A stretch of DNA of 64,000 nucleotides from Myxococcales bacterium. GTDB lineage: Bacteria > Myxococcota_A > Bradymonadia > UBA7976 > UBA1532. A program made the translations under genes and the position numbers. Location: NCBI GenBank assembly GCA_020633435.1, contig JACKDP010000010.1, positions 184,154-248,153 of the forward strand. Reading direction: 5' to 3'. Below are positions 18,523-21,338 of the stretch, piece after piece (position 1 is the first letter of the stretch; every line of letters starts with the position of its first letter). The notes under the pieces were generated by a model, which ran no database searches, had not been told where the DNA came from, and saw only the letters and a list, made by a program, of their open reading frames with translations.

Positions 18523-19009
18523 ATGTCCATCCAGGTGACCATCCCGACATCCGCCCTGACCGACCCGACCGTCGCCGCGGCGCTCGCCCGCCTGATCGAG
18601 GCGCTGGCGGATGTCGATCCTGCGCAGGGCGAGCCGGCCGCGGCCGCCCCGGCGGCCGCGGCGGACCGCCGCCCCGGCCGCCCCCCGGGGCTCGCGCAAG
18701 GCGAGCCGGGCGCGCAACCTGGCGCCGGTGCCGCCCCTGGCCGCCGAGCCGGGGGCGGGGGACCTCGACGCCTTCCTGGCAGCGCTCCCCGAGCGGTCGC
18801 GGGCGTTCTTGCTGCTGGTCCGGGAGCGCGGCGTGCTGGGCATCGACGAGGCCATGGAGCGCCTCGACATCCAGGCCGGCAAGGCGGTGGGCGGGCTGAC
18901 CGGATCCATCGCGCGCTGGGCGCCGGTGCATGGGGTCGAGGTGCCCTTCACCGCCATCCAGGGCATCGACGGCAAGCGCGCCTGGCGGTGGACGGGCGAA
19001 GGCGCCTGA
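18523..19009 (+). pseudogene. Paralog 1 of an unassigned tandem family; apparent 1-nt frameshift in the Pro/Ala linker
   Basis: The N-terminal module 'MSIQVTIPTSALTDPTVAAALARLIEALADV' is in frame 1 (ATG 18523). The conserved C-terminal module 'DLDAFLAALPERSRAFLLLVRERGVLGIDEAMERLDIQAGKAVGGLTGSIARWAPVHGVEVPFTAIQGIDGKRAWRW' is in frame 2 (ORF 18611..19009). Both modules are collinear in paralogs 2 and 3. Confidence 0.6.
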
Positions 19010-19233
19010 GCTGACCGTCGGCAGAGCCCGGGCCCCCGGCGCGCGCAGAGCGCGGCCCGGGTGGACCCTCGATCCCAGGCCGTCGAGCCTGACGCGAAGG
19101 CCGCGCCGCCTGCCAAACCGTCCGCGAAGGACTGGAATTCGTGGACCTTTCGGCCCGCCTCTGATACAGGATGACCATCGAATCACTGGATGACTTCCGA
19201 CCCGGAAGGGGAAGTCAAGAGGACGAAAACACG

Positions 19234-20094
19234 ATGGGTCTGAAGCTGGAGATCGAGCTTGAGCGGCTGCGGGAGCCCGCCGTCGCGGCGGCCGTCGCCC
19301 GGTTGATCGAGGTGCTCGGCGGCGTGCCTGCCGGGCGCGCCGCGCCCGCGCCCGCGCCCTCCCCCGTGGCGGCCCCGGCGCCCGTCGCGGTGCCCGAGGC
19401 GGCGCCCGCCCCGGCCCCCCGCAAGGCCCCGGAGGCCCGGCCCGAGCCGGCGCCCCTGCGGATCCTGCCCGACCCCCCCGAGCTCTCCCCCCGGGAGCGC
19501 TACATCGAGTTCGTCGAGCAGCTCCCGCAGCGCTCCCGCGACTTCCTGGATCTGGTGCGCGCCCGCAAGCTGCTGAAGATCAGCGACGCCATGCGTGAGC
19601 TGGACATCGACGCCCCCAAGGCCATGGGAGGTCTGACGGGCTCCATCGGTCGCTGGGCGCCCCTGCGGGGTGTGCAGATTCCCTACATTGCCACCACCGA
19701 GGAGGGCGAGCGCGCCTGGCGGTGGATCGGTGGCCCCGGGGCCGACGAGGACGCCGACGCCGAGGCCGACGCCGACGCCGACGCCGACGCCGACGCCGAC
19801 GCCGCCGAGGCCCCCGAGGCCGTGCTGGCGGCCCTGCGCGACGGGGGGCACGACAAGTCGGTCCGCTTCCTGGAGCTCCTCTACGAGCGCGGCGCCCTGG
19901 AGCGCGGCGAGGTCTTGCAGGCCCTGGGGCTGGCGGCCCCGAAGAGCATGGGCGGCGTGACGGAGCCCGTGAACCGCGTCGTGCGCGAGCAGGGCCTGGA
20001 CGCGGTCTTCCTGCCTGCCAAGAACGCCGCTGGCCAGCGCATGTGGCTGGCGCCGGGCGCGCCGGTGCCCGCGGGCGTGACCGTCGACGGCTGA
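19234..20094 (+). CDS. Paralog 2 of the unassigned family (two winged-helix-like modules joined by an Asp/Ala repeat)
   Basis: Start set at ATG 19234 (MGLKLEIELERLREPAVAAAVARLIEVLGGV) by homology with the N-termini of paralogs 1 and 3. Module 1 is '...FVEQLPQRSRDFLDLVRARKLLKISDAMRELDIDAPKAMGGLTGSIGRWAPLRGVQIPY...GERAWRW'. A degenerate second copy follows: 'VRFLELLYERGALERGEVLQALGLAAPKSMGGVTEPVNR'. Confidence 0.75.
   Translation: MGLKLEIELERLREPAVAAAVARLIEVLGGVPAGRAAPAPAPSPVAAPAPVAVPEAAPAPAPRKAPEARPEPAPLRILPDPPELSPRERYIEFVEQLPQRSRDFLDLVRARKLLKISDAMRELDIDAPKAMGGLTGSIGRWAPLRGVQIPYIATTEEGERAWRWIGGPGADEDADAEADADADADADADAAEAPEAVLAALRDGGHDKSVRFLELLYERGALERGEVLQALGLAAPKSMGGVTEPVNRVVREQGLDAVFLPAKNAAGQRMWLAPGAPVPAGVTVDG
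19744..19803 (+). repeat. GACGCC hexanucleotide microsatellite encoding (Asp-Ala)n
   Basis: Six perfect 'gacgcc' units lie at 19768-19803, preceded by imperfect units from 19744. They encode 'DEDADAEADADADADADADA' inside paralog 2. Confidence 0.9.
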
Positions 20095-20184
20095 CCTCGG
20101 CCGCCTCGACGCGCCCAGGCGGCCTGGGCCCTGGCCTGCGCGAACTCCCCTTGCGTCTGCCACCCCTCGCCTGATAACATCATT

Positions 20185-20245
20185 CATCACTCGTCTCGGG
20201 ATGGGAACGCCTCCCCCCGAGCACCGCTCCCCTACTCGAGTGATG
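20185..20245 (+). promoter_or_regulatory. Nested stem-loop in a lower-GC intergenic region upstream of paralog 3
   Basis: 'catcactcg' (20185-20193) is the exact reverse complement of 'cgagtgatg' (20237-20245). Nested inside, 'ctcggg' (20195-20200) pairs with 'cccgag' (20216-20221). Function unknown: terminator of paralog 2, 5' leader of paralog 3, or a small RNA. Confidence 0.35.
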
Positions 20246-20357
20246 GCATGAAATGTAGTGGCATGTAGGCCTTGAGGCTACAGCCCGGGAGCACGCGCCG
20301 GTTCGCGGCGGCCGCCTGGCCTCCACGGACCGCTTCTCTTCCATGGGGTAGGTATCC

Positions 20358-21338
20358 ATGTCGGTGACGCTCACCATTCCGACGGCTTTGCTTCGGATCC
20401 CCCGTGTGGCGGAGGCAGTCGAAGAGTTCATCTTCGTCCTGGCCGGGCAGGCCATGGCCCCCGCGGTGGCGCCGGTCGAGGCGCCCGCCGAGCCGGCCCC
20501 GGTCGCCGCGCACCCTCCGCCGCTCCCTGCCGCTCCCCCGGCGCCCGCCCGCCGCCCCGTCGCCCTGCCGCCCCCGGCGCCTCGCCGACGGACGCGCCCC
20601 GCGGTGGTGCCGGTGGCCGAGGGCCTGACGGGCTACGAGGCCTTCGAGGCCGCGCTGCCGGCCACCTCGCGCCGCTTCCTCGCCCTCGTGCGCGCCCGTG
20701 GCACCGTGGGCGTCGGCGCGGTCATGGAGGAGCTCGGCCTGGCCACCACCAAGGCCGTGGGCGGCATCACCGGCGCCATCGGGCGCTGGGCGCCCGAGCG
20801 CGGGGTGGCGCTGCCGTATGAAATCCTGACCATCGATGGCGAGCGCGCGTGGCGATGGCTCGATGGTCGCCCGGCCGAGGAGGCGCCCGTGGCCGAGGAG
20901 GCGCCAGCCGCGCCGCCCCCGCGTCCGCGCCCACGGCTGGTGAAGCCGACGCCACCCCCCGCGCCCGCGGTGCCCGAGGTGGTCGAGGCACCGGCACCCA
21001 CACTGGACGATGTGTATGGGCAGCTCTCCTCGATGGCGCGCAAGCTCGTGGACGCCGTGCGTGAGGCGCGCTCCCTGACGCGCCAGGACGCCGTGAACGC
21101 CCTCGGCCTGAGCAAGGCCTCGGGCCTGAGCCCGATCGTCAACGAGATCAGGTCGTTGTGTGATCCGCTCGGTCTCAGGTTCTTCCAGGACACCGTGGAC
21201 TACCGCGGCGTGAACGTCTACGAGTGGGCCGCCCCGCTGCCCGCCGCCGCGACGGCGCCCGGCGCCCCCGCGACGGACGAGGCCGATCGGGAGTTCGCGA
21301 CGGACGGGGTCATCCGCCGGCGCCGCAAGTCGAGCTGA
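20358..21338 (+). CDS. Paralog 3 of the unassigned family (two winged-helix-like modules)
   Basis: 326-aa ORF. N-terminus is 'MSVTLTIPTALLRIPRVAEAVEEFIFVLAG'. Module 1 is 'FEAALPATSRRFLALVRARGTVGVGAVMEELGLATTKAVGGITGAIGRWAPERGVALPY...GERAWRW'. The second, degenerate module is 'ARKLVDAVREARSLTRQDAVNALGLSKASGLSPIVNEIR'. Confidence 0.75.
   Translation: MSVTLTIPTALLRIPRVAEAVEEFIFVLAGQAMAPAVAPVEAPAEPAPVAAHPPPLPAAPPAPARRPVALPPPAPRRRTRPAVVPVAEGLTGYEAFEAALPATSRRFLALVRARGTVGVGAVMEELGLATTKAVGGITGAIGRWAPERGVALPYEILTIDGERAWRWLDGRPAEEAPVAEEAPAAPPPRPRPRLVKPTPPPAPAVPEVVEAPAPTLDDVYGQLSSMARKLVDAVREARSLTRQDAVNALGLSKASGLSPIVNEIRSLCDPLGLRFFQDTVDYRGVNVYEWAAPLPAAATAPGAPATDEADREFATDGVIRRRRKSS

Follow-up and report, generated by a model that had tools for sequence, protein, structure and literature searches.

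Predicted winged-helix paralogs in an ordered array beside priA: an undescribed protein family of Myxococcota

The H-NS-like proteins associate with one another through an N-terminal domain, which a flexible linker connects to a C-terminal domain for DNA binding; the latter domain is a winged helix in Rok. Lsr2 carries an N-terminal domain made of a beta-strand and a helix and uses an AT-hook-like motif at the minor groove. A similar order of parts was found in the products of three tandem genes, par1, par2 and par3, which lie next to the primosomal helicase gene priA on a 64,000-nucleotide (nt) stretch of DNA from a Myxococcales bacterium (GenBank assembly GCA_020633435.1, contig JACKDP010000010.1, positions 184,154 to 248,153; the whole stretch is hereafter called the window). 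As in H-NS/MvaT, Lsr2 and Rok, a short strand/helix head is followed by a disordered linker and a predicted winged helix, the likeness being one of layout. Unlike H-NS, Lsr2 and Rok, the family of par1-3 carries one to three winged-helix modules and Pro/Ala-rich linkers, without detected sequence similarity to these proteins, and no match in Pfam or NCBIfam placed it among H-NS, MvaT, Lsr2 or Rok. The par1-3 products are tentatively interpreted as chromosomal DNA-binding proteins of an architectural (nucleoid-associated) kind and not as repressors of one operator, a reading that we favor while giving it somewhat less than even weight. With a build like that of the H-NS, Lsr2 and Rok chromatin proteins, they could be nucleoid organizers of a very GC-rich lineage.

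Each of the three proteins begins with a motif of 30 amino acids (aa), here called the N-motif (family consensus MSIKIEIPLEALxDPAVARALADLMLALGG), followed by a disordered Pro/Ala/Arg linker of 45-60 aa and then by an 86-aa module. The product of par1 carries one module, and those of par2 and par3 carry two each. By three-way alignment, par2 and par3 were 48-51% identical to par1, and a DNA stretch of 106 nt was about 70% identical among the three genes. The alignment bore out two points of an earlier note on this DNA, namely that three same-strand paralogs share one architecture and that the module follows a near-invariant pattern ('LP.RSR.FL...'); its treatment of the first paralog as a single gene did not stand, because two reading frames had been silently spliced (see below). 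The degenerate second module that the same note had seen in par2 and par3 was recovered with a three-sequence seed hidden Markov model (HMM; E-values of 1.1e-11 and 0.016, respectively) and with a family HMM (97 and 80 bits), by which the par1 module scored 114 bits. Inspected by eye, the N-termini contain D, E and R and lack a basic n-region, hence no signal peptide was evident. An envelope or TonB-like protein was considered and rejected, since the match was to low-complexity Pro/Ala sequence only (NCBIfam TonB, at 17.9 bits where the cutoff is 315) and no membrane anchor was seen by eye.

Modeled by AlphaFold2 with an alignment of 20 modules, the module of par2 had a mean predicted local distance difference test score (pLDDT) of 92.9 and the order H0-H1-S1-H2-H3-S2-S3 (helices at residues 15-27, 32-38 and 44-60, strands at 29-31, 67-72 and 75-80, and an additional helix at 2-11). 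The module is predicted with high confidence to be a winged helix preceded by an additional helix at the N-terminus, in agreement with the guess of the earlier note for this region of ~80 aa, and the Foldseek matches in the PDB were all to solved DNA-binding proteins with winged helices, among them MecI/BlaI, SmtB/ArsR, SSV1 F-112, AspA (the centromere protein of pNOB8) and Zalpha (probability 0.97-1.0, template modeling (TM) score 0.54-0.60, identity 6-17%). Because the E-values of these matches were 0.013 or higher, the module is without a close relative. Superposition on MecI/BlaI and ArsR/SmtB, at a probability of 0.96-1.0, gave a root-mean-square deviation of ~3 A over 77-81 residues, and a Foldseek search of a viral library gave the same winged-helix picture. 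Among 107 family members, the top pair in an analysis of mutual information with average product correction (MI-APC), M70-M77, corresponds to a pair that spans the two strands of the predicted wing. In the AlphaFold2 model of full-length par2 protein, both modules were predicted confidently with the same pattern of elements and the linkers with low confidence; residues 1-30 were also confident, with an extended segment at 1-8 and helices at 9-13 and 15-28. A ribbon-helix-helix reading of the N-motif was rejected, because in this model the strand and helices are followed by the disordered linker and not by a second helix of that fold. A PDB search with a profile of 40 N-motifs detected no solved relative, and in the Foldseek search the whole-protein par2 model had no solved counterpart, tandem-winged-helix scaffolds appearing at TM scores of 0.15-0.22 only.

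No element of the module was conserved as strongly as the third helix, H3, with 3.17 bits per column among 107 representatives less than 50% identical to one another, and residues K45, G48, G49, G52, R56, W57 and A58 were each conserved in at least 85% of them. Basic residues are conserved in the 'RSR' that opens H1, within H3 (K45 and R56) and in the wing (R76), and the median isoelectric point (pI) of the family is 9.9. In search of a shared operator, 39 upstream regions of family genes, including the 211-nt region between priA and par1, were examined, and no k-mer of 7-9 nt exceeded the level in shuffled sequences. Architectural binding is favored because of the conserved H3 and the lack of a shared k-mer together with the head, linker and module layout. 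The same preference is drawn from the family genes standing alone, with neighbors that vary, outside the priA block. The fold with its structural neighbors, the conserved basic residues and the basic pI point to DNA indirectly, and an association with DNA is inferred from three further features of relatives: AT-hooks in some linkers, fusions to DNA enzymes, and copies in prophages. Canonical AT-hooks such as 'KRGRPRKNP' and 'KKRGRPKKNK' occurred 20 times in linkers against 3.1 +/- 1.8 in shuffles, and in relatives the module is fused to a methyltransferase of the Dam type and, in another case, to an ATPase resembling SbcC/SMC. Proteins of 777-838 aa with a C-terminal module, one of them with an N-terminal Dam-type methyltransferase, were encoded at three loci (L029, 8001-10334; L030, 8001-10517; L031, 8001-10385), where the neighbors include phage integrases, a small terminase, an S24 peptidase and a protein of ~1000 aa that carries a DnaG-type zinc ribbon; these fusion proteins lie in prophage-like or integrative-element-like stretches of the same lineages.

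Under the architectural reading, the N-motif would join subunits, possibly mixing the products of par1, par2 and par3, and the flexible linkers would tether the winged-helix modules, which would contact DNA through the surface of H3 and the wing. This surface is nearly invariant family-wide, and the binding would for that reason be directed to DNA shape or backbone rather than sequence-diversified. The linkers of some relatives would contribute AT-hooks. In eukaryotes, the linker histones H1/H5 have a winged-helix globular domain flanked by disordered tails rich in Lys, Ala and Pro. Linkers of the (KAPAA)n type in some family members (P0005) resemble these tails, but the linkers of the window paralogs are Pro/Ala/Arg-rich or acidic, and the modules gave no match to Linker_histone in Pfam even at E<=10.

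Several observations weigh against an architectural role. AT-hooks were carried by only 11 of 140 family members, and within the window the motif was represented only by 'DRRPGRPPG' of par1, a weak match situated at a frameshift site, with none in par2 or par3. The proteins of the window are themselves not basic (pI 6.6, 4.8 and 7.9), the acidic linker of par2 has a net charge of -12, and the second type of module carries Glu in H3 ('GGVTEP'). The exposed face of H3 is rich in Gly, a composition equally suited to contact with another protein and to a close approach to DNA. The oligomerizing role of the N-motif is putative, the structure prediction being that of a monomer. By MI-APC of 107 sequences, pairs between the N-motif and module 1 accounted for 5 of the 50 top pairs versus 21.5 expected, at low statistical power; because of this low power, the depletion is taken as a lack of support for docking of the N-motif on module 1 and not as its refutation, and it would be compatible with an intermolecular role.

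The searches of Pfam, NCBIfam, PHROGs and PADLOC identified no family that matches the window proteins, as the earlier note had supposed, and none of par1-3 reached a Pfam gathering threshold. Below threshold, HTH_DeoR (PF08220) was matched by 4 of 20 modules (best E 2.4e-4), and single weak matches among the same modules were to E2F_TDP, HTH_39, HTH_20, TrmB and HTH_5. A sequence-profile search of the PDB with the module gave nothing meaningful, tblastn with the module found no match in the phage and plasmid collections, and no published description of the family was found. The earlier note had called the proteins undescribed, which stands for the sequence family and its domain architecture and not for the fold, which is known; by the libraries and literature searched, the new parts are the sequence family, the N-motif, the architecture of linkers with tandem modules and the ordered triplication beside priA.

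A word-indexed search found 11 relatives of par2, and a profile searched against 1.84 billion proteins gave a total of 270 cluster representatives at E<=1e-3, of which 194 were at E<=1e-10. The N-motif stood at the start of 109 of the 156 proteins examined, nearly always from residue 1-5, and the number of modules ranged from one to three per protein. The linkers of the family have a median length of 43.5 residues and consist of 24% Ala, 18% Pro and 15% Arg plus Lys. All named members are annotated as 'hypothetical protein' and come from metagenome genomes of Bradymonadales or Myxococcales. A scan of one genome per species, made with one strict peptide pattern, detected 21 loci, a count that is too low because of the single strict pattern; all were in metagenome-assembled genomes, labeled Bradymonadia, Nannocystaceae or 'Myxococcales' (all Myxococcota) or just 'bacterium'. 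Judged from its named or located members, the family is restricted to Myxococcota that are little studied and mostly uncultured.

Across the loci fetched, family genes were present singly or in same-strand arrays of two or three. A neighbor-joining tree of the well-conserved modules gave three groups that match the first, second and third gene, indicating that par1-3 are old paralogs kept in order and not the outcome of a recent local duplication. The adjacency to priA proved to be kept in related genomes, a point which the earlier note had left to comparison: priA, located by tblastn under 13 fetched locus identifiers (L001 and L008 denote the same place) plus the window, preceded the array in divergent orientation at 14 of 23 distinct loci in the comparison, one of them the window. 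The PriA proteins of the priA-flanked loci are 56-75% identical, and the gene beyond priA is common to at most three loci. Downstream of the array, six to eight loci have convergent genes for a type IIA topoisomerase, one ParE/GyrB-like and one ParC/GyrA-like (L013, L019, L020, L022, L025 and L026, at ~7000-11500 in each; also L015-L017). Neither the window nor L001 (GCA_041389985.1), a related assembly with the same gene order and 80-85% nucleotide identity to the window, has these parE/parC-like genes, and priA is kept in both; the block of priA, array and type IIA topoisomerase genes is broken in the lineage of the window. The par locus belongs to an old chromosome-maintenance neighborhood. 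Other family members are found in unrelated contexts far from priA. Between the window and L001, the ratio of nonsynonymous to synonymous substitution rates (dN/dS) was 0.12 for the 5' part of par1, 0.24 for its 3' part, 0-0.32 for par2 and 0.09-0.49 for par3, and purifying selection is seen for each motif and each module. The earlier note had considered that the module might occur in this genome only, with no sign of such selection; this does not hold, because the family is conserved, with 270 representatives, and selected (dN/dS 0-0.49).

Among the alternatives, the one that survives best, still judged unlikely, is that par1-3 encode sequence-specific winged-helix regulators with promoters of their own, par1 acting on the priA promoter and/or all three regulating themselves. 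Winged-helix regulators that are transcribed divergently often control the promoter of the neighbor or their own. The structures closest to the module are operator-binding repressors (MecI/BlaI, ArsR/SmtB and MarR-like proteins), with which it shares the winged-helix topology and the extra N-terminal helix; furthermore, the divergent arrangement with priA is conserved around a shared intergenic region of 211 nt, and each par gene has an upstream region of its own. The par1-3 products, however, lack the C-terminal dimerization or metal-sensing parts of MecI/BlaI and ArsR/SmtB, add the 30-aa N-terminal motif, long disordered linkers and tandem modules, and have neither a ligand-sensing nor a canonical dimerization domain. 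From one ancient paralog to the next, and across the family, the helix presumed to serve in recognition hardly varies, unlike that of transcription-factor families that have diversified. The 39 upstream regions yielded neither a shared nor a palindromic motif above shuffles, and family members also occur at a distance from priA in unrelated contexts.

It is improbable, in our judgment, that the par1-3 products are accessories of PriA-dependent replication restart, i.e., lineage-specific counterparts of PriB/DnaT or of the Firmicute protein DnaD, which would bind PriA as well as forked or single-stranded DNA and aid the loading of the replicative helicase. In DnaD, a winged helix is accompanied by an N-terminal strand/helix element for oligomerization. 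Such a role would agree with priA being the most persistent neighbor of the array at the frequency given above, with its retention in the window lineage which dropped the parE/parC-like neighbors, with the recurrence of the module beside a primase-like protein in prophage-like elements, and with an invariant H3 surface that suits a common structural target. Nevertheless, the arrangement is divergent and not co-operonic, no copy was found beside priA in the bins 2_bin.46 and 3_bin.88 or in the genomes of L003, L006, L011 and L021, and inherited synteny is enough to explain the adjacency, because the block also holds the parE/parC-like genes. Neither Pfam nor the PDB gave a match to DnaD, DnaB_2, PriB, PriC or DnaT; for DnaD and DnaB_2 in particular, Pfam had no match at E<=1 with whole proteins or at E<=10 with modules, the PDB profile search gave nothing relevant, and DnaD was not among the top 50 Foldseek matches of the module. 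The likeness to DnaD, a functional partner of PriA (PMC5778457), consists of a winged helix there and of priA as a conserved neighbor here; unlike DnaD, the par proteins have no C-terminal domain of the DDBH2 type and carry disordered linkers and tandem modules. PriA is the sole restart protein conserved in all phyla, and whether it has partners elsewhere is an open question (PMC5778457). The old, ordered triplication between priA and the parE/parC-like genes is a testable candidate for PriA accessories outside the model organisms. In its full form, which is more doubtful by a little, the proposal is that the trio represents the missing PriA partners of Myxococcota, a primosome adaptor of this lineage functionally like PriB/DnaT or DnaD; its members would oligomerize by their N-motifs, bind stalled forks by the invariant winged-helix surface and recruit the replicative helicase; if so, the related modules in prophage replication regions would serve the replication of mobile elements likewise.

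Winged helices that do not bind DNA are known as scaffolds in the kite proteins (ScpB, MukE, Nse1/3), in ESCRT-II and in the winged-helix domains of cullins, and there is a slight chance that par1-3 likewise encode protein-protein scaffolds, in which the N-motif and the Gly-rich face of H3 would bridge partners. The top Foldseek matches of the full-length model include UFL1/DDRGK1, ESCRT-II, ScpB and Nse1-3, kite/ScpB, Nse1/Nse3 and ESCRT-II have two winged-helix units per chain as do par2 and par3, and the exposed Gly-rich H3 face, the neutral to acidic character of the window paralogs and the acidic H3 residue of type-2 modules all agree with such a function. These matches at TM ~0.2, however, mirror the mere repetition of winged-helix units; the units of kite proteins and ESCRT-II pack together, whereas the par modules, one to three per protein, are kept apart by low-confidence linkers of 25-45 residues. 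The enrichment of AT-hooks in linkers, the fusions of the module to DNA enzymes, the basic character of the family overall and the conserved basic residues at H1 'RSR', K45, R56 and wing R76 also argue against scaffolds.

That the par genes, or par1 at least, are decaying pseudogenes or chance open reading frames (ORFs) of DNA with 75% GC is very unlikely and for the family as a whole largely refuted, since the frameshifts in par1 and in par3 and priA of L001, and the long ORFs found in all frames of GC-rich DNA, are opposed by a dN/dS of 0-0.49 for every motif and module (par1 past the shift included), by GC content at third codon positions (GC3) that backs the proposed frames, by hundreds of homologs, by a confident fold prediction and by the single frame of the remaining par1-group orthologs.

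In par1 of the window, 'MSIQVTIPTSALTDPTVAAALARLIEAL' (N-terminus, 'MSIQVTIPT...') is read from 18523, and the module 'LPERSRAFL...GKRAWRW' is encoded in the next frame, within the ORF 18611-19009. The gene was split between frames 1 and 2 by tblastn, and the GC3 signal changes frame at ~18620-18700. The ortholog in L001 is a single intact ORF of 163 aa, and DNA alignment with it located a single surplus base of the window within the CGCCCCCCGGGG run at 18677-18692. In nine of nine other par1-group orthologs, the N-motif and the module are in one frame; a programmed frameshift was rejected on this ground, as L001 and the others are read without a shift and a conserved programmed shift is thus not indicated. 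The module 3' of the shift is still constrained (dN/dS 0.24 against L001, as above). In L001, priA (6686-9093) is in two frames and is called as two genes, par3 (10933-12194) is spread over three frames, and the linker of par2 (10001-10861) reads as an Arg-rich stretch that looks out of frame. These breaks suggest that GC-rich DNA of low complexity is either unstable or systematically affected by indel errors. For the extra base in par1, an assembly error is as likely as a very recent mutation, because the pair of window and L001 has further frame breaks in GC-rich stretches. The public call for par1 is an ORF of 132 aa (P0083) that starts inside the linker, and that for par3, with 310 aa (P0033), begins 16 codons too far downstream, so that half of the N-motif is missing. 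Automatic annotation thus miscalls par1 and par3 and masks their common architecture, and GC-rich linkers in assemblies of this type accumulate frameshifts.

Table 1. Features of the priA-par region, in positions of the window
Feature	Positions	Strand	Remarks
priA, primosomal helicase, 797 aa from likely start 'MTSGTAEVAVPVPV'	15918..18311	-	divergent from par1
priA/par1 divergent intergenic region, 211 nt	18312..18522	.	GC 0.66 vs 0.744 in window
par1 5' part: N-motif 18523-18612 and start of linker	18523..18685	+	frame of 18523; N-motif HMM match at 18523
par1 frameshift site, C6G4 run, overlapping AT-hook-like 'RRPGRPPG'	18677..18692	+	1 extra base vs intact ortholog
par1 3' part: remaining linker and single module 18749-19006, stop 19007-19009	18686..19009	+	frame of ORF 18611-19009
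par2, 286 aa, intact ORF: N-motif 19234-19323, linker, module 1 19486-19743	19234..20094	+	
par2 C-terminal part: acidic (Asp-Ala)n linker, module 2 19810-20070, then 'GVTVDG' strand		+	
(GACGCC)n microsatellite, codes acidic linker between par2 modules, net charge -12	19736..19813	+	low pLDDT in model
par3, 326 aa, intact ORF: N-motif 20358-20447, Pro/Ala/Arg linker, module 1 20619-20876	20358..21338	+	
par3 C-terminal part: linker, degenerate module 2 20988-21242, basic tail 'GVIRRRRKSS'		+	

The features of the region are listed in Table 1. The base composition of the whole window is ~74% GC (0.744). The gaps 5' of par1, par2 and par3 are 211, 224 and 263 nt, in accord with the separate upstream regions of ~200 nt described in the earlier note, and a Shine-Dalgarno-like AAGAGGA is present 5' of par2. 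Scanning detected no sigma-70-like promoter or intrinsic-terminator-like site, such a scan being of little value at 75% GC, and neither Rfam nor tRNA scanning found a match anywhere in the window. Par1-3 are monocistronic-looking paralogs and not an operon of differing functions, which leaves the 'system' of the earlier note hypothetical. The Pfam domains PriA_3primeBD, DEAD, ResIII, Zn_ribbon_PriA and PriA_C were identified on the PriA ortholog of L001.

The (GACGCC)n tract of par2 is replaced by Asp-Glu-Gly repeats in the L001 ortholog, which indicates that the tract between the two modules is evolving fast. Upstream of par3, the segment 20168-20271 of the window contains blocks kept in L001 (CGCCTGATAAC and GGCATGTAGGCC) and an 8-nt inverted repeat, ATCACTCG / CGAGTGAT, with the arms ~40 nt apart, also conserved with L001; 5' of more distant par3 orthologs, no conserved motif or structure of the 5' untranslated region was detected (consensus energy -0.85 kcal/mol).

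Downstream of priA and convergent with it, an ORF of 1887 aa (10232-15895, plus strand) has many repeated units of ~90 aa and beta-helix-like repeats; its L001 ortholog has 1864 aa, with no Pfam match recorded. Downstream of par3, a Gly-rich, lipoprotein-like gene (21357-22544, minus strand) contains an in-frame stop at 21885-21887 and is split in the window into the ORFs 21357..21794 and 21885..22544 of the same frame. Its ortholog in L001 is one gene of 370 aa, which aligns to 22475..21360 of the window in a single frame.

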